A stretch of 64,000 nucleotides of DNA from an uncultured Bacilli bacterium (GCA_934087065.1 CAKOIS010000001.1:46388-110387), one strand, 5' to 3'. Counted from the first letter of the stretch, positions 1,133 through 13,188 are shown. Notes: generated by a model not told the origin, from the letters alone. Numbers and translations are program-made.

Positions 1133-1172
1133 GTAAAACTCGGAGCAAATATTAACAAACTCCGAGTTTTAC
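1133..1172. terminator. Long perfect hairpin, likely bidirectional terminator after rlmH
   Basis: GTAAAACTCGGAG - 14 nt loop - CTCCGAGTTTTAC. The 13-bp perfect stem includes A/T tracts on both sides. Confidence 0.55.
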
Positions 1173-1268
1173 TATAACCCAAATTGTACACATCTCATAT
1201 TTTTTCTTGGTAATTATAGAAAAATCATGAATAATATGTTATAATTTAGTAGAAAAGGATAAATTGAT

Positions 1269-2141
1269 ATGGGAAAAATAAAGAAAAAATTAATAATAAA
1301 TGGAATGCTTTTAATACTAGGATGTTTACTAATTTCACTAACATTCAACGTCTTTTGTGTTCCAAATAAAATCGTGCCTGGTGGTTTAAGTGGCGTTGGT
1401 ATAATATTTGACCACTTATTTAACATAAAAACATCTTACGTACTACTAATAGGAAACATAATTTTAGTAACTATAGGTATAATCTGCCTTGGACTAAAAG
1501 ACACAATCCCATCAATAATAGGTGCCATTGTGTATACTCTAGTTATGTATCTAACTGAACTACTAAATGTCACTATTACACTAAGTAGTCCATTTTTGAA
1601 CATAATCACAATAGGAGTACTCTTTGGTATTGGCTGCACAATGGTGTACTTATCAGGTTGTAGTTTAGGTGGCTTAGACATAATAGGAGTGATATTCAAT
1701 AAAAAATTCGGCTTAACTCTAGGAACAGCATTATTTATAGTAAACGGCACAGTCTTAATTGTCGGCACATTCATATTCGGTGTAGAAATGCTCATAACTT
1801 CACTAATCATAAGATTTATAGAAAGCAAAATAATAGATAACTTTCTAACAGGAATAAGTGACTCAAAAATAGTATTCATTAATACAGACAAAAAAGAAGA
1901 AATAATATCATACATCATAACAGAAATAGAAGGTGGAATAAGTGAAATTCCAGTAAAAACAGGATACAAAAAAGAAAATTCTAGCATTATCATGTGCGTA
2001 GTGCCAACAGAAAAATACCTAATATTAAAAGAAAAAATAATAGAAGTTGACAATGATGCATTTCTAACAGTACTAGACTCATACGAAGTATACGGTGGTA
2101 CAAATAGGTATAAACTACCACTTCATGATTTAAGAATATAG
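1269..2141 (+). CDS. YitT-family membrane protein (DUF2179 C-terminal domain)
   Basis: Multi-TM N-terminal part with the VPNKIVPGGLSGVGII motif and a soluble C-terminal domain ending DSYEVYGG, the YitT/DUF2179 architecture. Confidence 0.7.
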   Translation: MGKIKKKLIINGMLLILGCLLISLTFNVFCVPNKIVPGGLSGVGIIFDHLFNIKTSYVLLIGNIILVTIGIICLGLKDTIPSIIGAIVYTLVMYLTELLNVTITLSSPFLNIITIGVLFGIGCTMVYLSGCSLGGLDIIGVIFNKKFGLTLGTALFIVNGTVLIVGTFIFGVEMLITSLIIRFIESKIIDNFLTGISDSKIVFINTDKKEEIISYIITEIEGGISEIPVKTGYKKENSSIIMCVVPTEKYLILKEKIIEVDNDAFLTVLDSYEVYGGTNRYKLPLHDLRI

Positions 2142-2166
2142 TGATATAATTAACTAGGAGGTAAAA

Positions 2167-2853
2167 ATGAATTTAATAGAAGTAAAAAATGTATATAAAC
2201 AATACAAAAACGGTGTAACAGCCCTAAGCGACATAACACTTTCTATTCCAAAAGGCGACTTTGTCTTTGTAATAGGCTCAACTGCTTCAGGAAAAAGTAC
2301 ACTAATAAAACTACTTTATAGACAAGAAAAACCATCACGTGGAGAAGTTTATGTAGGTGGAATAAACGTAAGCAAATTAAGAAACAGAAAAGTATATAAA
2401 TTAAGAAGAAAACTAGGAATAGTATTCCAAGACTATAAATTATTACAAAACCTAACTGTATTTGAAAATGTTGCATTTGCACTAGAAATATATGGTTTAC
2501 CTGAAAATGAAGTAAGAAAAAAAGTAATGAATGCAATAGAAAAAGTTGGATTAAAAGAAAAATTTAGAAGTTATCCAGATCAACTATCAGGTGGAGAGCA
2601 GCAGCGTGTATCAATCGCTCGTGCAATAGTAAATAATCCAAAAATACTAATATGTGACGAACCTACTGGTAACCTAGACCCAACAACATCAATGGGAATA
2701 ATGGAAATAATAAACAAAATTAATGAAGAAGGTACAACTGTTATAATGGCAACACATGACAAAGACATAGTAAATCATTACAAGAAAAGAGTTATCAAAC
2801 TAGAAAAAGGAATACTTGTAGGTGACACAGTTAAAGGAGGTTATGGGAAATAA
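2167..2853 (+). CDS. ftsE: Cell division ATP-binding protein FtsE
   Basis: Walker [13 protein letters not shown] signature LSGGEQQR, Walker B ILICDEPT. One-nt overlap (TAATG) with the downstream ftsX. Confidence 0.9.
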
Positions 2854-3752
2854 TGAAATACTTAAGAATAATAAGAAACAACATAAAAGACTCACTAAAA
2901 AGTGTCTTCCGTAACTTCTCACTTAGTATAGCAAGTATATCTTGTATAACAATAACACTAATACTAGTAGCAGTAGCCGTTTTACTAAGCGAAAACGTAA
3001 GCAAATTCACTTCTGACATAGAAAAAGACGTAACTATTGTAGTCTACATAAACAAAGATGCAACAGATACAGACATTGAAGCACTTAAAACAAAAATAGA
3101 ACTTTTATCAAATATAGATAGTATTACATTTATGTCAAAAGAAAGTATTAGAAAAGACATGTCAAAAGAAAGTGATGGACTTGGCACAATACTAAGCGAA
3201 TACGACGAAACAAATAACCCACTTCTAAACGAATACTTAGTCAAAGTAAAAGACACAGAAAGTATTGGCGTAACTGCAAAACTAATAAAAGAATTATCAG
3301 GCGTTTACCAAGTAAAATACGGTGAAGGCATGGTAGAAGAATTAGTCAAAATATTTGACATAGTTAAAAAAATAATGGTAGTCATAGTAATAGGACTTAT
3401 CATAGTAACAGCATTCCTAATAAGTAACACAATAAAAATAACTATCAACAACAGAAAAAGACAAATAGAAATCATGCGTTTAGTAGGAGCTTCAAACACA
3501 TACATAAAAACACCTTTCTTCTTTGAAGGCATTATACTAGGTTTCATAGGTAGCATAATTCCAGTATTATTAACTACTTTTGGCTACACTTACCTATATG
3601 ACAAAATGAATGGAATCTTGTTTACTGAAGTAATAACCTTAGTAAACCCAAGCACTATAATGTTAAAAACAATACTAATAATAGTATCAATTGGTGTAGT
3701 AGTCGGAGCAATAGGTTCATCCCGTGCAGTAAGGAGGTACCTAAAAATATAA
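2853..3752 (+). CDS. ftsX: Cell division permease-like protein FtsX
   Basis: TM1, then an extracellular alpha/beta domain, then three C-terminal TM helices (FtsX fold). Gene order is ftsE-ftsX. Confidence 0.85.
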   Translation: MKYLRIIRNNIKDSLKSVFRNFSLSIASISCITITLILVAVAVLLSENVSKFTSDIEKDVTIVVYINKDATDTDIEALKTKIELLSNIDSITFMSKESIRKDMSKESDGLGTILSEYDETNNPLLNEYLVKVKDTESIGVTAKLIKELSGVYQVKYGEGMVEELVKIFDIVKKIMVVIVIGLIIVTAFLISNTIKITINNRKRQIEIMRLVGASNTYIKTPFFFEGIILGFIGSIIPVLLTTFGYTYLYDKMNGILFTEVITLVNPSTIMLKTILIIVSIGVVVGAIGSSRAVRRYLKI

Positions 3753-6555: not shown

Positions 6556-6584
6556 TTATGATAGAAAGTAGGGTGCAAAACTTT

Positions 6585-8804
6585 ATGAATGAAGAAGAAA
6601 AGAAAATAATAGAAGAAGAAGGTCTTTATTTCGTAGAGCCAGATAAGAAAGAAAAAAGAAAAAAAATACTAATAATTGTATTTGTATTTACTCTTTTTAT
6701 CGCGGCTACAGTAAGTACAACATACTCTGTAATAAACTTTATAAGTAATTACAAAATGAGACTAAATATAGACACAGATGGTGACGGCTTACCTGATTTA
6801 AACATAGACACAGACGGTGATGGCAAGTGTGACGTTAACTGCGACACAAATGGTGATGGAGTACCAGATATTGACATTGGTTACAAAAACATACAAAAAC
6901 CTTTCTTTAACATAGACACAGACGGTGATGGAAAACCAGACAAAAACTTAACAAATGTAAAAGACGAAAATGGAATGTGTATTAAAAACTGTGACACAAA
7001 TAACGATGGATATCCTGATACTAACATAGATTTTGACGATGACGGAATATGTGATTTAAACTGTGATACAGACAAAGATGGTAAATGTGATATTAACTGT
7101 GACATCAATAACGACGGCAAGTGTGATTTAAATTGTGACACTGATAAAGATGGAAAACCTGACACTAACATTGACGAAGACAAAGATGGAATTTGTGATA
7201 AAGCTTGTACAGGAAAAGAAAATGACTCATGCAAAATCAATTGTGATATAGACGGCGACGGCAAATGTGACAGAAACTGTGATACAAATAATGACGGCGT
7301 ATGTGATAAGAACTGCGATGTTAACGGCGATGGAGTATGTGACTATAACTGCGACACAGATAACGACGGCAAATGTAATAAAAATTGTGACACAAACGGC
7401 GATGGAATATGTGATAAATTCTGTGGGAACAAAGGAAGTGATGTTTGCCTTATTAACTGCGATACAGACAAAGATGGCATTTGCGACAAAAATTGCGATG
7501 TAAACGGAGACGGTAAATGCGACATAAATTGTGACACTAACAATGATGGAAAATGTGACAAAAACTGTGATACCGATAATGACGGCATTTGTGACAAGAA
7601 TTGCGATGGAAAAGAAAACGACTCATGTAAAATAAATTGTGACACAAATGGCGATGGAAAGTGTGATATCAACTGTGACACTGATGGTGACGGTAGATGC
7701 GATAAGAATTGTGACGTTAACGGCGACGGCAAATGTGACTATAACTGTACAGAGAATAATGATGTGTGCGTTAAAAATTGTGACACAAATAATGACGGAA
7801 AGTGTGACTTAAACTGCGATACAAATAATGATGGACAATGCGATAAGAACTGCGATACTGATAACGATGGAATTTGTGATAAATTCTGTGAAGGAAAAGA
7901 AAACGACTCATGTAAGCTAAACTGTGATACAAATGGTGATGGCAAATGCGACAGAAACTGCGACACAAATAACGATGGCAAATGCGATAAAAATTGTGAT
8001 GCCAACGGAGATGGAAAGTGTGATTACAATTGTGACTCAGACAGTGATAAATGTAAAAGAAATTGTGATACAGATGGAGACGGGAAATGTGAATTAAACT
8101 GTGATACCAACAATGATGGTGTATGCGACAAGAACTGTGACACTGATGGAGATGGTGTATGCGACAAAAATTGTGATGGAAAAGAAAACGACTCATGTAA
8201 ACTAAATTGTGACACTGATAACGATGGCAAATGCGATAGAAATTGTGATACAAATAACGATGGCGTATGTGACTATAACTGCGATACAAATGGTGACGGA
8301 AAGTGTGATAGGAACTGCGACATAGACAAAGACGGAGTATGTGACAAAAACTGTGACACTGATGGCGATGGCATTTGTGACAAAAACTGCGGAGCGCCTA
8401 TAGATATTGGAAAAGACGAAGAACACACAATAACATTTAAAGACTTAACAAATATGCAGAACATAAATATCTATCCAGGTTGGAGGAGTGCTAAATCTTT
8501 TGAAATAACAAACTCAAGTACAGTAGACTTAGTATACACAATAAAATTCACAAATGTAGAAAATACATTCACTACAAAAAACAACCTTAACTATGGTCTA
8601 ATAAGAGATGGAGAAGTACTAATAGATATAGACAAAGCAAAAGCACCTTACCAAGATGGAGATATGCTAAAAAGTGTAGTAATTAAACCTGGTGAAACAC
8701 ATACTTACCTATTTAAATTAATGTTTAAAGACACAAACGAAAACCAAGATACAGAACAAGGTAAGAAATTCACAACAAAAATTCAAATTGAAAACGTTCA
8801 TTAG
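6585..8804 (+). CDS. Membrane-anchored giant surface protein: acidic cytoplasmic head, one TM helix, about 44 Cys-rich DxDxDG (thrombospondin type-3-like) Ca-binding units, C-terminal TasA/camelysin-like module
   Basis: The start at 6585 (MNEEEKKIIEEEGLYF) matches the paralogue start MDEKEKRKIIEEEKLYF. TM helix ILIIVFVFTLFIAATVSTTYSVI. The 12-aa repeat is NCDTNNDGKCDK. The C-terminal motifs are YPGWRSAKSFEITN and NQDTEQGKKFTTKIQIE. Confidence 0.85.
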   Translation: MNEEEKKIIEEEGLYFVEPDKKEKRKKILIIVFVFTLFIAATVSTTYSVINFISNYKMRLNIDTDGDGLPDLNIDTDGDGKCDVNCDTNGDGVPDIDIGYKNIQKPFFNIDTDGDGKPDKNLTNVKDENGMCIKNCDTNNDGYPDTNIDFDDDGICDLNCDTDKDGKCDINCDINNDGKCDLNCDTDKDGKPDTNIDEDKDGICDKACTGKENDSCKINCDIDGDGKCDRNCDTNNDGVCDKNCDVNGDGVCDYNCDTDNDGKCNKNCDTNGDGICDKFCGNKGSDVCLINCDTDKDGICDKNCDVNGDGKCDINCDTNNDGKCDKNCDTDNDGICDKNCDGKENDSCKINCDTNGDGKCDINCDTDGDGRCDKNCDVNGDGKCDYNCTENNDVCVKNCDTNNDGKCDLNCDTNNDGQCDKNCDTDNDGICDKFCEGKENDSCKLNCDTNGDGKCDRNCDTNNDGKCDKNCDANGDGKCDYNCDSDSDKCKRNCDTDGDGKCELNCDTNNDGVCDKNCDTDGDGVCDKNCDGKENDSCKLNCDTDNDGKCDRNCDTNNDGVCDYNCDTNGDGKCDRNCDIDKDGVCDKNCDTDGDGICDKNCGAPIDIGKDEEHTITFKDLTNMQNINIYPGWRSAKSFEITNSSTVDLVYTIKFTNVENTFTTKNNLNYGLIRDGEVLIDIDKAKAPYQDGDMLKSVVIKPGETHTYLFKLMFKDTNENQDTEQGKKFTTKIQIENVH
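6765..8390 (+). repeat. In-frame 36-bp tandem repeat array (12-codon units) with a higher-order period of about 5-6 units
   Basis: The unit NCDT[ND][NG]DG[KIV]CD[KIRLY] repeats almost without interruption, punctuated by GKENDSCK[IL] variant units. Confidence 0.9.
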
Positions 8805-8863
8805 GACGTTTTTTTGTTTTAATAAAAATGTCAATACAAAAATAATGTTTGATTTACAGCGAC

Positions 8864-8892
8864 TTGACACACCATGCTTTTTGTGTTATAAT
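8864..8892 (+). promoter_or_regulatory. Perfect consensus sigma-A promoter for the 165-aa orphan gene
   Basis: TTGACA (8864..8869), 17-nt spacer ending in TGt, TATAAT (8887..8892). Confidence 0.65.
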
Positions 8893-8945
8893 CAAATTAT
8901 GAAAAAATTCAGCAGTATAATTTCGCTGAAAGAAAGGAGAAAATA

Positions 8946-9443
8946 ATGACAAAAATAGAACTATTTTCTATACCAATATATTTAATAAATGAAGAGCGTT
9001 ATTTAAAAACATTGACAGATAGAATGAATAATTATGTATGCAAATTTTCTGACGATAGAAAAGAAGAAGTAAAATCGGTTTGGAAAAAATACAATTACAT
9101 TAATAAGCCATGGAAATATAATCAAATAATAGGTTATGTTGAAATTGTATATAGAGATAATTCTATATACTTTGATATCTATAAAGTTTTTAAAAAGAGA
9201 GTAAGAGTAGCAAGTAATAGGAAAAGTTATATTTCGTATATGCCAACCAGTGGTTTTCACTTTAGCAACTTGAAAAATATGACAAACGAAGATATAAAGG
9301 TAGAAATAAACGAGTGGTTAAAAAATATTGAAAAGACATTTTGCAAAAATAAAGAAATATTAGATAAAAAGATGTTTGATGTTCAAATAGAGTACATCGA
9401 CTTAAAGTCATTAATAAATGACGCAAAAGAAAATGTACACTAA
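8946..9443 (+). CDS. Hypothetical cytoplasmic protein (165 aa, Lys/Tyr-rich), no family recognised
   Basis: AAGGAG RBS 7 nt upstream, its own consensus promoter and terminator, and no TM or signal sequence. It lies between the two giant paralogues. Confidence 0.6.
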   Translation: MTKIELFSIPIYLINEERYLKTLTDRMNNYVCKFSDDRKEEVKSVWKKYNYINKPWKYNQIIGYVEIVYRDNSIYFDIYKVFKKRVRVASNRKSYISYMPTSGFHFSNLKNMTNEDIKVEINEWLKNIEKTFCKNKEILDKKMFDVQIEYIDLKSLINDAKENVH

Positions 9444-9458
9444 GTGCATTTTCTTTTA
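9431..9458 (+). terminator. Weak rho-independent terminator
   Basis: ATGTAC - ACTAA - GTGCAT (one G-U pair), followed by TTTTCTTTTATT. Confidence 0.45.
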
Positions 9459-9520
9459 TTATATCTAGAGTTTTTTAAAAAAATATGGTAATATTATAAA
9501 TAGAATAAGAGGAGGATATT

Positions 9521-11191
9521 ATGGACGAAAAAGAAAAAAGAAAAATAATAGAAGAAGAAAAATTATATTTTGAACAAGAGGAACCTGTTAAGAAAAGAAA
9601 GTCAAAGACTGTTTTAATAGTTTTAGTGTTTATATTATTTATTGGTGTAACCTGTGTATCTTCATATATAGTTATGAATTATATACTACTTAAATCAAGA
9701 AATCTAAACGTTGACACTGATGGAGATGGATGGCCTGATTTAAATATAGACACAGATGGTGATAAAATTTGTAACGTAAACTGTGATAACAATAAAGATA
9801 ACAAGCCTGATTATAACATAAGCTATAAAAATATGATGGCTGCCTACTTTAATTTAGATACAGATAAAGATGGCAGACCTGATAAAAACATGATTAACCA
9901 AAAAGATGGAAATGGTATATGTATATTAAATTGTGATGTAGATAACGATAACAGACCAGACACTAATCTAGATTTTGATGGAGACGGGACAGCAGAACTA
10001 AATATAGACTTAAATAATGATGGTAAATGTGATATCAACTGTGATTATGTAGGAAACAAATATCCAACAATTAACCTAGATACAAACGAAGACAACAAGG
10101 CAGACCTAAACATAGATACAGACAATGACCAAAAACCAAACATAAACATTAATTATGGTACTAACTATAACGAAGCAATATTTAATATAGATACAGATGG
10201 CGATGGCATAGCAGATAAAAATCTTGTAAATCAAAAAGACAGTACAGGTAAATGTATATTAAACTGTGATACAAATAACGATGGATGGCCCGAAATCAAC
10301 ATAGATATAAATGGAGATGGCGTAGCAGACCTAAACATAGATACAACAGGAGACAACAAAGCAGACTTAAATATAGATTTAACTGGAAATAAAATATGTG
10401 ACTTAAACTGTGATACAAACAATGATGGTATAGCAGACACAAACATAGACACAGATAATGATGGAATAGCAAATATAAACATTGATATCAATAACGATGG
10501 CATAGCAGAAATAAATGTTGACACAACAGGAGACAAGAAAGCAGATACAAACCTATTAAATCAAACAGACAGTACAGGCAAATGCATATTAAACTGTGAC
10601 ACAAATAACGATGGAAGGCCAGATATGAATGTCGACTTAGATAACGATGGAATGCCAGACTTAAATATAAGTTTAAACAATAGTAATAGCATAAATGCGA
10701 ATGCAGACTCAGATAAAGATGGCGTAGCAGATAACTATCTAATAGATGCAAAAATATTAACTAAAGAAACAAAAGAAGAAAACATAGATTTAAATACAAC
10801 AAATGAATATAAATTCCCATATTTAGGAATGAATGACTTTGATAGCAGCATAGTAAAACCCGGTTGGACAAAAACAAAGAAATTTAACATAACAAATACA
10901 GGTGCTTCAACAATTACTTATTCAGTTTATTGGGAAGACATACTAAACGAATATCACTATGAAGTAAGACCATACTATACTTTATATAAAAATGGTACAG
11001 AAGTAGTAAGTGGAAAAGCAAATTATATTATAAACAACGGTGAAACACTTGTAGAAAACATAGAACTAAGTTCTAACCAAACTGATAAGTACGAATTAGT
11101 ATTTACATATGCACCAAATGTAGACCAAAAATTAATAGACAACAATGTAAACAGACTATATTATTCAGCATTAAAAATTGTTAAAAAATAG
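9521..11191 (+). CDS. Membrane-anchored surface protein, paralogue of 6585..8804 with Cys-poor DxDxDG repeats and a C-terminal TasA/camelysin-like module
   Basis: AGGAGG RBS. It shares the head (EEEKLYF), TM helix, first repeat block (NVDTDGDGWPDLNIDTDGD) and C-terminal motif KPGWTKTKKFNITN with the paralogue. Confidence 0.85.
   Translation: MDEKEKRKIIEEEKLYFEQEEPVKKRKSKTVLIVLVFILFIGVTCVSSYIVMNYILLKSRNLNVDTDGDGWPDLNIDTDGDKICNVNCDNNKDNKPDYNISYKNMMAAYFNLDTDKDGRPDKNMINQKDGNGICILNCDVDNDNRPDTNLDFDGDGTAELNIDLNNDGKCDINCDYVGNKYPTINLDTNEDNKADLNIDTDNDQKPNININYGTNYNEAIFNIDTDGDGIADKNLVNQKDSTGKCILNCDTNNDGWPEINIDINGDGVADLNIDTTGDNKADLNIDLTGNKICDLNCDTNNDGIADTNIDTDNDGIANINIDINNDGIAEINVDTTGDKKADTNLLNQTDSTGKCILNCDTNNDGRPDMNVDLDNDGMPDLNISLNNSNSINANADSDKDGVADNYLIDAKILTKETKEENIDLNTTNEYKFPYLGMNDFDSSIVKPGWTKTKKFNITNTGASTITYSVYWEDILNEYHYEVRPYYTLYKNGTEVVSGKANYIINNGETLVENIELSSNQTDKYELVFTYAPNVDQKLIDNNVNRLYYSALKIVKK
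9707..10740 (+). repeat. In-frame degenerate 36-bp repeat array (N[ILV]DxxxDGx[AP]Dx units interspersed with CxxxC-containing units)
   Basis: Examples are NIDTDGDGIADK, NIDINGDGVADL, NIDTDNDGIANI and NIDINNDGIAEI. A spacer unit of the form NQKD(G/S)xGxCILNCD occurs three times. Confidence 0.8.
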
Positions 11192-11196
11192 CAACA

Positions 11197-11225
11197 AAAT
11201 AGGAACATTAAATTCCTATTTTTTC
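11197..11225 (+). terminator. Rho-independent terminator
   Basis: AAATAGGAA - loop - TTCCTATTT, followed by a T run. Confidence 0.7.
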
Positions 11226-11263
11226 TTTTGTGTTAAAAAAATGAAAAAACTATCAAAAAAGGG

Positions 11264-11292
11264 TTGATTTTATCAAAAAAACTTGATACAAT
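11264..11292 (+). promoter_or_regulatory. Sigma-A promoter of the putative major TasA-like subunit gene
   Basis: TTGATT, 17 nt, TACAAT, then AAGGAGG (11303..11309) 9 nt before the ATG. Confidence 0.6.
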
Positions 11293-11318
11293 TTTTAATG
11301 TAAAGGAGGTAAAGAACT

Positions 11319-11879
11319 ATGGGAGAAAACAAAGGACAAACTATTTTCTTATCAGTAATTGGAATCGCAACTTTATTAGTAGCAATTATAGGTGCAACAT
11401 TTGCATACTTCACAACTACTATGGGAAATAAAAATGCCGTTACAGGTGGTGTTACTACTGCAACTATTTCAGCTGTAACATTAGCTGGAACTGAGTTTGA
11501 CGCAAAAAATGTAATGCCAGGTTGGACAAGTGATGAACAAACTTTCACTATTTCTGCTGCAACAATCACTGGTGACGCAACTGCTGATTATGTTTGTAAC
11601 ATTATTAAAACTGGTACAGGAGTATCAACTGATTTCCAATATGCAGTAACAACTGGTACAGCTGGTACTACATATGGTGAGTGGGCAGCTGTTCCAGCAA
11701 CTTCAACTGAAGTTGCTAAGGGAACACTTTCAGCATCAAGCAAAACTCACACTTACAAAGCTAAGTTCCAATTAGTTGAAACTAATGCAAACCAAAATGA
11801 ACAACAAGGTCAAAGCTATGGTGCTTCTATTACATGCGCATTAACTAAAGTTAATGGAAAAGCTGTAGAAGGTGAATAG
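11319..11879 (+). CDS. TasA/camelysin-family secreted protein with SipW-type signal peptide (putative major fibre subunit)
   Basis: The leader MGENKGQTIFLSVIGIATLLVAIIGATFAYFTTT matches the ..GGT[FL]AYF[ST]D class. It carries MPGWTSDEQTFTIS and NQNEQQGQSYGASITCA motifs, a Thr/Ala/Gly-rich mature part, and its own promoter and terminator. Confidence 0.8.
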   Translation: MGENKGQTIFLSVIGIATLLVAIIGATFAYFTTTMGNKNAVTGGVTTATISAVTLAGTEFDAKNVMPGWTSDEQTFTISAATITGDATADYVCNIIKTGTGVSTDFQYAVTTGTAGTTYGEWAAVPATSTEVAKGTLSASSKTHTYKAKFQLVETNANQNEQQGQSYGASITCALTKVNGKAVEGE

Positions 11880-11920
11880 TTTGAATTAACATAGTTAATT
11901 TACGATTATTAACAAAAATT

Positions 11921-11947
11921 AAGTTAGATTTACTTCTAACTTTTTTT
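11921..11947 (+). terminator. Rho-independent terminator
   Basis: AAGTTAG - loop - CTAACTT, followed by TTTTTT. Confidence 0.7.
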
Positions 11948-11960
11948 GTTGTTTATGTAC

Positions 11961-11989
11961 TTGAATTTTTCACATTTTTTTGGTATCAT
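11961..11989 (+). promoter_or_regulatory. Extended -10 promoter of the two-gene minor-subunit operon
   Basis: TTGAAT, 17 nt, TGgTATCAT. Confidence 0.55.
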
Positions 11990-12013
11990 ATTATATAGAA
12001 TACGGTGATAGAT

Positions 12014-12586
12014 ATGAAAGAGAAAGATATTAAAACATATATTTATTCAATAATAGTAGTTTTATCATTTATTTTGGTAGCTATAGGCGCATCTTTAGCA
12101 ATAGTTTATTATAAAGTAAATGGTAACAATGAAAACGGAAACGTTGATGTTAAAACAGCATATGTAACTGCGGCATTTCATGAAATACAAGGCTTTAACG
12201 ACGAAAATGTACTTCCTGGTTGGAGTAATGAAATGAAATTTGAAATAATTAACACATCAACAGAACAAAACGCTGTTGGTAGATATTCACTAGTTTGGGA
12301 TATCACAAAAAATGAAATAGACAGTAAAGATTTTATTTATACATTAACTGGAGAAAGCACATTAGATGGTCAAACAATTGAAGACAACACTCCAACAAAT
12401 AAATTAGTAACAGTAACTGGGCAACAAATAGTTCCTACTATAAGTTTTACTTTAGGTAGCGGAATAATTAACACAGGAGTTAAACATAGCTATGTGCTTA
12501 AGGTTTCATTCCTTGAAAGTGGAGAAAATCAAAATGAACTTCAAGGCAAAACTTTTAACTCAACAATAGTTGCACAAGGAAAGTAG
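12014..12586 (+). CDS. TasA/camelysin-like protein with an uncleaved-looking N-terminal TM anchor (putative minor/anchoring subunit)
   Basis: The ATG at 12014 is preferred; the ORF track starts at GTG 12005. TM helix IYSIIVVLSFILVAIGASLAIVYY without the AYF motif. It carries LPGWSNEMKFEIIN and NQNELQGKTFNSTIVAQ motifs. Confidence 0.7.
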   Translation: MKEKDIKTYIYSIIVVLSFILVAIGASLAIVYYKVNGNNENGNVDVKTAYVTAAFHEIQGFNDENVLPGWSNEMKFEIINTSTEQNAVGRYSLVWDITKNEIDSKDFIYTLTGESTLDGQTIEDNTPTNKLVTVTGQQIVPTISFTLGSGIINTGVKHSYVLKVSFLESGENQNELQGKTFNSTIVAQGK

Positions 12587-12594
12587 GTGTTAGA

Positions 12595-13188
12595 ATGAAG
12601 GAAAAAAATCAAGAAATATTATTATCAGTTGTAAGCATTCTAACAATTATAGTAGCTGTAATTGGTGTTACATTTTCATACTTTACTACTAAAATGACTG
12701 GTTCAGGAACAAGTGGAACAGTAACAACTGCAAAAGTTGGAAACATTACATTTGATGGAGGTAATGATTTAACAAATGCAAACGATATAGAGCCAGGCGA
12801 TACATTTGATAAGACATTCAGTATAAGTGTTCCAGCAACAGATGTATCAAACACTGTATATATAAGAATGGATTTCACAAACGAATTTCAAGACTTACAG
12901 TGGAGTATAAAAGGAACAGGTGCTAATACAAGTGTTATAACTGGTACAATACCAACAACATCTACAAAAACAACAGTAACACTTGTAACTAACAAAATAA
13001 CTAAAAACTCAGTAGCTCAAACATTTAATTATACATTAACAATAACACTACCTAATTTAGATAAAAATCAAGATTATGACCAAGGAAAAACATTCAGTGG
13101 TACATTATATGCAGACTTAGGCGATGGCGTTGATATGATATATTATAACAACACACATCCAAGTGGAACAACTACAAAACCACAGTAG
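12595..13188 (+). CDS. TasA/camelysin-family secreted protein with SipW-type signal peptide (second subunit)
   Basis: Leader MKEKNQEILLSVVSILTIIVAVIGVTFSYFTTK, plus EPGDTFDKTFSISV and NQDYDQGKTFSGTLYAD motifs. Confidence 0.8.
   Translation: MKEKNQEILLSVVSILTIIVAVIGVTFSYFTTKMTGSGTSGTVTTAKVGNITFDGGNDLTNANDIEPGDTFDKTFSISVPATDVSNTVYIRMDFTNEFQDLQWSIKGTGANTSVITGTIPTTSTKTTVTLVTNKITKNSVAQTFNYTLTITLPNLDKNQDYDQGKTFSGTLYADLGDGVDMIYYNNTHPSGTTTKPQ

Follow-up and report, generated by a model that had tools for sequence, protein, structure and literature searches.

All-or-none cysteine pairs in the 12-residue repeat arrays of two paralogous proteins from an uncultured Bacilli bacterium

Tandem Asp-rich loops of the DxDxDG type occur in the type 3 repeats of thrombospondins (TSP-1, TSP-2 and COMP), which are extracellular, lack regular secondary structure and carry interspersed cysteines, each of which pairs with a cysteine of the neighbouring repeat. 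For TSP-1, many Ca2+ sites and thiol-disulfide isomerisation have been described in this region (PMC2289535, partial text). In bacteria, a related loop is found in Excalibur, an extracellular calcium-binding domain with the motif DxDxDGxxCE (PMC1876623), and the general Dx[DN]xDG loop has been defined, together with the apolar position 8 of EF-hand loops, by Rigden et al. 2011 (PMC3123361). Here we describe two paralogous open reading frames (ORFs), ORF A and ORF B, located in a stretch of 64,000 nucleotides from an uncultured Bacilli bacterium (GCA_934087065.1 CAKOIS010000001.1:46388-110387; hereafter the window). Both encode long arrays of 12-residue units in which two positions, four residues apart, are either both occupied by cysteine (C/C units) or both free of it. 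We read these arrays as strings of predicted calcium-binding loops carrying a local C-x3-C (i,i+4) disulfide that may be exchanged for a hydrophobic pair, a reading to which we give a probability of ca. 0.6.

The two proteins are built on a common plan with a charged N-terminus, a hydrophobic segment, an array of 12-residue units and a C-terminal domain of ca. 135-150 residues. Their features are as follows, the start of ORF A being at 6558 and not at 6585 as given in a previous reading made from the nucleotide sequence (hereafter the sequence-only reading).

6558..8804, + strand: ORF A, 748 amino acids, the Cys-rich paralogue
6666..6743, + strand: hydrophobic segment of ORF A, residues 37-62, read from the sequence
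6771..8390, + strand: repeat array of ORF A, residues 72-611, 45 units of 12 residues (two of 11)
8391..8801, + strand: C-terminal domain of ORF A, residues 612-748, a putative TasA/camelysin-like beta-sandwich
9521..11191, + strand: ORF B, 556 amino acids, the Cys-poor paralogue, with the architecture of ORF A
9608..9691, + strand: hydrophobic segment of ORF B, residues 30-57, which holds Cys45
9713..10741, + strand: repeat array of ORF B, residues 65-407, 28 units
9770..9784, + strand: example of an isolated putative clasp in ORF B, Cys84-Asn-Val-Asn-Cys88
10742..11188, + strand: C-terminal beta-sandwich domain of ORF B, residues 408-556

Identity between ORF A and ORF B is 59% across the first ca. 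136 residues and falls to 17% for the C-terminal domain. The hydrophobic segment of ORF A may act as a signal-anchor or as a signal peptide of the TasA type, and its equivalent in ORF B forms a helix (residues 26-59) in an AlphaFold2 model. Both arrays have a 36-bp period, with an additional higher-order repeat of 285 bp (8 units) at 7488-8309 in ORF A (Tandem Repeats Finder). Several long ORFs (88-172 amino acids) also run on the minus strand within the array of ORF A (6881-8289); they result from the periodicity of the array and do not represent genes. Units were tiled in the phase D1-x-[D/N]3-x-D5-G6-x7-X8-D9-x10-N11-Y12, in which X8 and Y12 correspond to position 10 of one unit and position 2 of the next in the numbering of the sequence-only reading. 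The consensus of 1520 units shows D/N3 in 98%, D5 in 95-97%, G6 in 83-88% and D9 in 91-94% of cases, D1 being at 100% as a selection criterion. Position 11 is Asn in ca. 91% of units, with Asp next at ca. 4%. The hydrophobic positions are 2, 7, 8, 10 and 12 (ca. 40% of the unit).

When compared to DxDxDGxxDxxD, the calcium motif of thrombospondin type 3 repeats, most units have D1, D/N3, D5, G6 and D9, but Y12 (Cys or Ile/Leu/Val) stands where the motif has its final Asp, and no further Asp follows until the D1 of the following unit. The unit agrees with the linear motif of the generic Dx[DN]xDG loop, having Gly6, an acidic position 9 and, as EF-hands do, a conserved apolar position 8. It is nevertheless not an EF-hand, in that flanking helices are lacking, position 8 holds Pro, Ala or Cys in place of Ile, Leu or Val, the bidentate Glu of EF-hand position 12 gives way to Cys or a hydrophobic residue, and the loops abut every 12 residues. 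With thrombospondin type 3 repeats the arrays share the tandem Asp-rich DxDxDG-type loops, the extracellular location, the lack of regular secondary structure and the interspersed cysteines; they differ by a uniform 12-residue period, as opposed to alternating long and short motifs, and by a C-x3-C whose pairing, judged from covariation, lies within the motif, where thrombospondins have C-D-N-C. Excalibur likewise has an extracellular DxDxDG loop, in bacteria, that is directly followed by a conserved Cys, but this Cys is at position 9 and not 8, in a single domain of ca. 37 residues and not in a 12-residue tandem unit.

No Pfam family attained its cut-off over the array. A Pfam-A hmmscan of the array returned no TSP_3, TSP3_bac, EF-hand, dockerin or Excalibur match (E<=0.01 for whole proteins, E<=10 for fragments), and a match to DUF6802 fell below its cut-off. 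NCBIfam models of MSCRAMM Clf/Sdr adhesins were matched with 40-100 bits against cut-offs of 999-2500; these matches reflect Asp-rich composition, as they are confined to the Ser-Asp repeat part of the models. Sequence searches of the PDB with ORF A and with a 111-residue array sequence gave nothing significant, EF-hand proteins (polcalcin) surfacing only at E of ca. 1. The array may resemble the thrombospondin calcium wire by functional analogy, profile and fold tests for that family having failed, and no description of a C-x3-C/hydrophobic clasp that toggles within a uniform 12-residue tandem unit was found in the literature searched.

All 78 cysteines of ORF A fall into 39 C-x3-C pairs, successive gaps alternating between 4 and 8 (or 7, 20 and 46). 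ORF B contains 13 cysteines, namely six C-x3-C pairs (CNVNC, CDINC, CDLNC and three CILNC, exactly the set listed in the sequence-only reading) and Cys45, located in the hydrophobic segment, which is the sole unpaired one. Tiling of the 45 units of ORF A yielded 37 C/C units, two 11-residue units with C-x3-C, five P/I units and one P/L unit, while the 28 units of ORF B divide into six C/C, 21 [A/P]/[I/L/V/M] and one I/A. The C/C share is therefore 87% in ORF A (39/45) and 21% in ORF B (6/28). The claims of the sequence-only reading that cysteines always come as pairs four residues apart, that no unit junction holds a lone cysteine, and that one paralogue is dominated by cysteine pairs and the other mostly uses the hydrophobic pair are all borne out by these counts. 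Its description of the non-Cys state, Ala or Pro followed by Ile, Leu or Val, holds for nearly all units and fails for two of ORF B, one P/M and one I/A. All six C/C units of ORF B have non-Cys units on both sides, as illustrated by Cys84-x3-Cys88, which is flanked by Ile76 (position 12 of the preceding unit) and Pro96 (position 8 of the following one).

This all-or-none pattern greatly exceeds chance expectation and extends to other genomes, as seen across homologues, which numbered 923 clusters with ORF B and 1253 with ORF A as query (E<=0.001). In the best 120 homologue clusters, 327 units were C/C and 1193 non-Cys, and the one apparently mixed unit was an out-of-register match. A register-checked census of 209 proteins, made of homologue clusters and of ORFs from named genome contigs, comprised 3516 units, with 1117 C/C, 2389 non-Cys and 10 apparently mixed; nine of the latter stem from a shifted register, and the tenth from an insertion of one residue that gives C-x4-C. 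Tabulating both positions across units, which the sequence-only reading had proposed as its own check, thus revealed no true lone cysteine. Loose patterns gave apparent lone-Cys units (76+10, 38, 10 and 8 cases), each of which, on inspection, proved to be out of register by 4 or 8 residues or to contain an insertion of one residue (C-x4-C).

Scanning species-representative genomes with ORF A detected 24 loci, nearly all in uncultured Bacilli from rabbit, mouse or human gut. Full-length orthologues occur in Bacillota bacterium UBA11492 (95% identical) and Clostridium sp. CAG:628 (78%). That ORF A seemed to lack Cys-rich relatives was due to length filters and to contigs that end within the repeats, and many such relatives were recovered by the scan of genome contigs. 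In two metagenome-assembled genomes (MAGs) of rabbit-gut Bacilli, a protein of 1904 amino acids (L006, 3607-9318) has 244 cysteines, all in C-x3-C (122 consecutive pairs), and one of 1154 amino acids (L007, 1865-5326) has 132 out of 132 in this motif. Array length differs several-fold between species and cysteine density reaches 10-13% of residues.

Among 29 ORFs from other genomes, 2027 of 2089 cysteines are in C-x3-C. The remaining 62 correspond to a single Cys in the hydrophobic segment, also shared by the ORF B orthologues, to C-x11-C, to C-x4-C with a one-residue insertion, or to a long-range pair in the C-terminal domain. In the C-x11-C variant two successive Asn11 are both replaced by Cys (e.g. 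EVCLDTNGDKKPDIC, residues 275 and 287 of the L013 ORF); it occurs in L013, L015, L016, L017, L019 and L021, alongside the conserved long-range pair (residues 874 and 983 of the L013 ORF), and both suggest, from sequence, further disulfides in the family. The number of cysteines after the hydrophobic segment is even in 85 of 88 anchored homologues and, following the even-Cys criterion of Daniels et al. 2010, also in ORF A (78) and in ORF B (12 outside the hydrophobic segment). An even-Cys bias is regarded as an indicator of oxidative folding in disulfide-bonded exported proteins (partial text of PMC2823432).

Coupling between positions 8 and 12 stands apart from all others in the unit. Their mutual information is 0.70-0.72 over 1845 unique two-unit windows, every other pair being at or below 0.31 (next-ranked are positions 2 and 10 with ca. 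0.30, and 7 and 2' with 0.26), and C/C and non-Cys units are the same at all other positions. Whenever an orthologous unit has another state in another species, both positions have changed together (e.g. CC>AV, CC>PV, CC>PI, AI>CC). When ORF A is aligned with its orthologues of UBA11492 and CAG:628, 37/37 tiled C/C units and 6/6 hydrophobic units face units of like state, and 23 of 24 aligned homologues have the C/C state in the units at residues 77, 127 and 238 of ORF B. Units of ORF A are 81% identical at codon positions 1+2 and 46% at position 3, and its cysteine codons are 54 TGT and 24 TGC. This low third-position identity and the mixed use of TGT and TGC indicate that the units are old and that their cysteines have been kept by selection. 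The coupling proposed by the sequence-only reading thereby finds support, positions 8 and 12 behaving as one structural unit in terms of mutual information, of concerted changes and of the lack of a third covarying position.

The states of position 12 in one unit and of position 8 in the next are discordant in 554 of 1845 windows. Together with the isolated pairs of ORF B, this indicates that the partner is the residue four away and not the Cys across the calcium loop, and it rules out a loop-closing pairing Cys12(n)-Cys8(n+1). A disulfide that would compensate for lost calcium ligands was also rejected, since C/C occurs in 42 of 120 degenerate units and in 468 of 1384 canonical ones (odds ratio 1.05, p=0.84).

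In the reading that we favour, each 12-residue unit would represent a Dx[DN]xDG-type loop that probably binds calcium, and the loops would follow head to tail to form a long helix-free array between the hydrophobic segment and the TasA-like end domain. Positions 8 and 12 would flank the short D9-x10-N11 connector and pack together, this packing site having two isostructural states, either a Cys8-Cys12 disulfide or Pro/Ala against Ile/Leu/Val. A lone thiol at position 8 or 12 would be selected against, and both positions of a unit would have to switch together, in many cases probably via duplication or replacement of the unit and not through point mutations one after the other. The stalk would then be heavily clasped in protein A and mostly unclasped in protein B. 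Nearest-neighbour pairs (1-2, 3-4 and so on) should be the easiest to oxidise during export without an isomerase. The 8-12 contact and its S-S bond are putative; a disulfide is favoured because the cysteines are even in number and paired, because all other extracellular cysteines are paired as well, and because the alternative state is a hydrophobic contact of the buried type.

Models were obtained with AlphaFold2 for ORF B (24 homologues), with a predicted local distance difference test score (pLDDT) of 85-91 for residues 60-170, and for residues 61-349 of ORF A (46 sequences), with a mean pLDDT of 84 and values of 94-97 over residues 70-170. In both, DSSP assigned no helices to the arrays and found isolated beta-bridges at positions 10 and 12 with a strict period of 12, in a pattern that is identical in C/C and P/I units. 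Since the first bridge of each model is at a position 12 and the last at a position 10, we infer that in these models each D1-D9 loop is closed by a bridge from position 12 of one unit to position 10 of the next. With such a topology successive Asn11 would be cross-strand neighbours, which fits the natural C-x11-C variant. A Foldseek search of 350,542 PDB chains with the ORF A model (residues 61-349) gave no match at E<=10, this tool being weak on folds of low secondary structure. The whole ORF B model matched generic beta-sandwiches only, via its C-terminal domain, in which strands occur at residues 420-555 with pLDDT 70-93.

The geometry of an 8-12 disulfide was explored by a scan of idealised backbones, which is a feasibility argument only. 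It is feasible with residues 10 and 12 in beta, residue 9 in alpha-R or bridge-like and residue 11 in left-handed conformation. Asn and Asp are the non-Gly residues that adopt the left-handed conformation most readily; the Asn-rich position 11 is compatible with it, as it is with a role as ligand or in a ladder.

Several points weigh against this reading. With residues 8-12 fully extended, the C-beta atoms of the two positions are 13.6 Å apart on the idealised backbone, and volume compensation between Pro/Ala and Ile/Leu/Val is weak (chi-square p=0.026). Units within a protein are related by duplication, so that raw counts overstate the number of independent events. Calcium binding is predicted from the motif only. 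Furthermore, Firmicutes generally exclude Cys from exported proteins (PMC2823432), the hosts are uncultured gut Bacilli and presumably anaerobes, and a CxxC motif search found no thioredoxin-like oxidoreductase gene in the window or in the 24 related loci.

These last points are also those on which an alternative can be built, in which both cysteines stay reduced in the anaerobic gut and form a small hydrophobic pair, a lone Cys being shunned for steric reasons or as a hazardous odd thiol. The host genomes are MAGs of gut Bacilli, neither the window nor the surroundings of the related loci contain a Dsb-like gene, Firmicutes tend not to rely on disulfides (PMC2823432, partial text), and the other state of the site is purely hydrophobic, as this explanation would have it. 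By volume, however, Ala/Cys, Cys/Ile and Pro/Cys combinations would then fit, and none occurs in 3516 units; other extracellular cysteines are also paired, at positions where spatial neighbours are expected, and the even count in 85 of 88 homologues points in the same direction. A reduced pair is for these reasons held to be unlikely. C-x3-C binds metal in some proteins, e.g. Sco-type copper proteins, and each pair could likewise be a thiolate site for Zn, Fe, Cu(I) or Cd, maybe with the help of Asp9 and Asp1', making protein A a metal sponge or a metal-stiffened stalk. Carboxylates flanking the cysteines (C-D-x-N-C-D) and the density of 10-13% fit such a role, which we find quite unlikely nonetheless: no His or extra ligand covaries with the cysteine state, non-Cys units conserve Asp9 and Asp1 to the same degree, and the isolated pairs of ORF B cannot make four-Cys sites within one chain. 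That cysteines are swapped for a packed hydrophobic pair moreover suggests buried, contacting side chains and not an open chelator.

The contact might instead be formed between chains, position 8 of one meeting position 12 of another, through a disulfide or a hydrophobic contact, in parallel in-register oligomers. An in-register homo-oligomer predicts the same covariation within the unit, the ca. 40% of hydrophobic positions need burying, and a fully extended 8-12 segment would preclude any contact within the chain. Against this, the model of the monomer is highly confident (pLDDT 94-97 over ca. 100 residues), A and B are unlike in unit number and state pattern and the length of orthologues varies, which is awkward for a strict register, and no direct sign of oligomerisation was seen, so that we judge this arrangement improbable. 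The least credible explanation dispenses with structural coupling altogether and supposes that two ancestral unit types were amplified, each unit inheriting both residues. The arrays did grow by tandem duplication, including the 8-unit repeat of ORF A, and a change of state requires at least 4 nucleotide changes, which makes unit replacement a likely route. Yet third-codon positions of ORF A are near saturation (46% identity) while the Cys pair is kept in 39 of 39 units, the pattern holds in 209 proteins of many species, orthologous units switch between species and always in concert, and not one decayed, lone Cys was seen.

A Cys-rich gene (78 Cys each) followed in tandem by a Cys-poor gene (11-14 Cys) is also found in L003, L004 and L005, and in contig L001 of a related strain a truncated A orthologue (96% identical) is located upstream of a B orthologue. 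Conservation of the pair implies that its differentiation is presumably functional. It is possible that A and B form a redox-sensitive and a redox-insensitive version of the same stalk, as the sequence-only reading put forward; the sole argument for this is the Cys-rich/Cys-poor tandem, conserved in at least three other species-level genomes and in the related strain. A wider proposal, in which the array would be a new minimal calcium-loop fold with one 12-residue loop per Ca2+ and a packing site toggled many times between its two states, and A and B would be two stalks for TasA-like fibres whose stiffness or stability differs in its response to redox potential and calcium, for example along the oxygen gradient from lumen to mucosa, is speculative and we give it a small chance.

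Further features between and downstream of the two genes are:

8946-9443: unrecognisable ORF of 165 amino acids between ORF A and ORF B
11319-11879, 12005-12586 and 12595-13188 (span 11319..13188), + strand: genes of three small secreted TasA-like proteins

The C-terminal domain of ORF A matches Peptidase_M73 of Pfam with E=0.01 and 16.1 bits, against a cut-off of 22.5, and ORF 11319-11879 matches it with E=0.006 and 16.9 bits, also below the cut-off. In an alignment, the motifs PGW...F.I.N...Y.L/F...NQ..QGK.F are common to the three small proteins and the end domains of both A and B, and the order of the three small genes is repeated in L001. TasA fibres assemble by donor-strand exchange with the assistance of TapA (PMC9674648 and PMC10151520, both in part); TasA and TapA of Bacillus differ from A and B in having neither a calcium-loop stalk nor a Cys clasp. 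The N-terminal segments of A and B (…FIAATVSTTYSV… and …FIGVTCVSSYIV…) are similar to the signal peptides of the downstream TasA-like proteins (…IGATFAYFTT… and …IGVTFSYFTT…). Because of this resemblance, A and B might be cleaved by the same peptidase as the small proteins, instead of staying anchored in the membrane. A Firmicute precedent for a matrix protein whose behaviour depends on oxidation of a short Cys motif is provided by BslA of Bacillus subtilis, a biofilm-matrix protein with a redox-controlled C-terminal CxC (bioRxiv 10.1101/138099, partial text); as far as that text goes, it has an unrelated fold and a single CxC engaged in intermolecular bonds, not dozens of local C-x3-C.

The related strain further differs from the window in this region. 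Housekeeping genes of L001 are 90-99% identical to those of the window (gap 99%, udk-like 97%, spo0A 96%), and the C-terminal part of A reaches 96%. When window positions 9521-12586 are compared to L001 3815-6915, identity is 53% for B and 39%, 71% and 94% for the first, second and third TasA-like proteins, respectively. On sequence comparison, a cassette that is hypervariable or has been exchanged seems to be formed by B together with the first fibre-subunit gene or the first two. In L001, a CBASS-type module (SMODS nucleotidyltransferase, E2-CBASS and SUa-2TM effector) occupies positions 1135-3494 between the A and B orthologues, where the window has the ORF of 165 amino acids. The stretch between A and B looks like a hotspot for insertions.

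With over 900-1250 matching database clusters at E<=0.001, the family is large. Uncultured Bacilli from the human, mouse and rabbit gut commonly carry it, but neither Pfam, NCBIfam nor the PDB contains it. Its all-or-none Cys pair amounts to a natural experiment in which thousands of units take one of two states and intermediates are lacking. The pattern is exceptionally clean, though its chemistry and biology remain inferred. It would show how, within a very small repeat, a hydrophobic contact can take the place of a disulfide and vice versa, and would pin one contact of an unsolved fold. Runs of 39 to 122 consecutive Cys pairs in exported proteins are unexpected for Firmicutes. If these pairs are oxidised in vivo, gut anaerobes must be able to make numerous local disulfides extracellularly; otherwise, these proteins expose dense pairs of thiols at the cell surface. 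Should A and B indeed be stalks with such differing responses, they would constitute a structural element that senses redox conditions outside the cell, in a lineage of Firmicutes otherwise expected to avoid exported cysteines.

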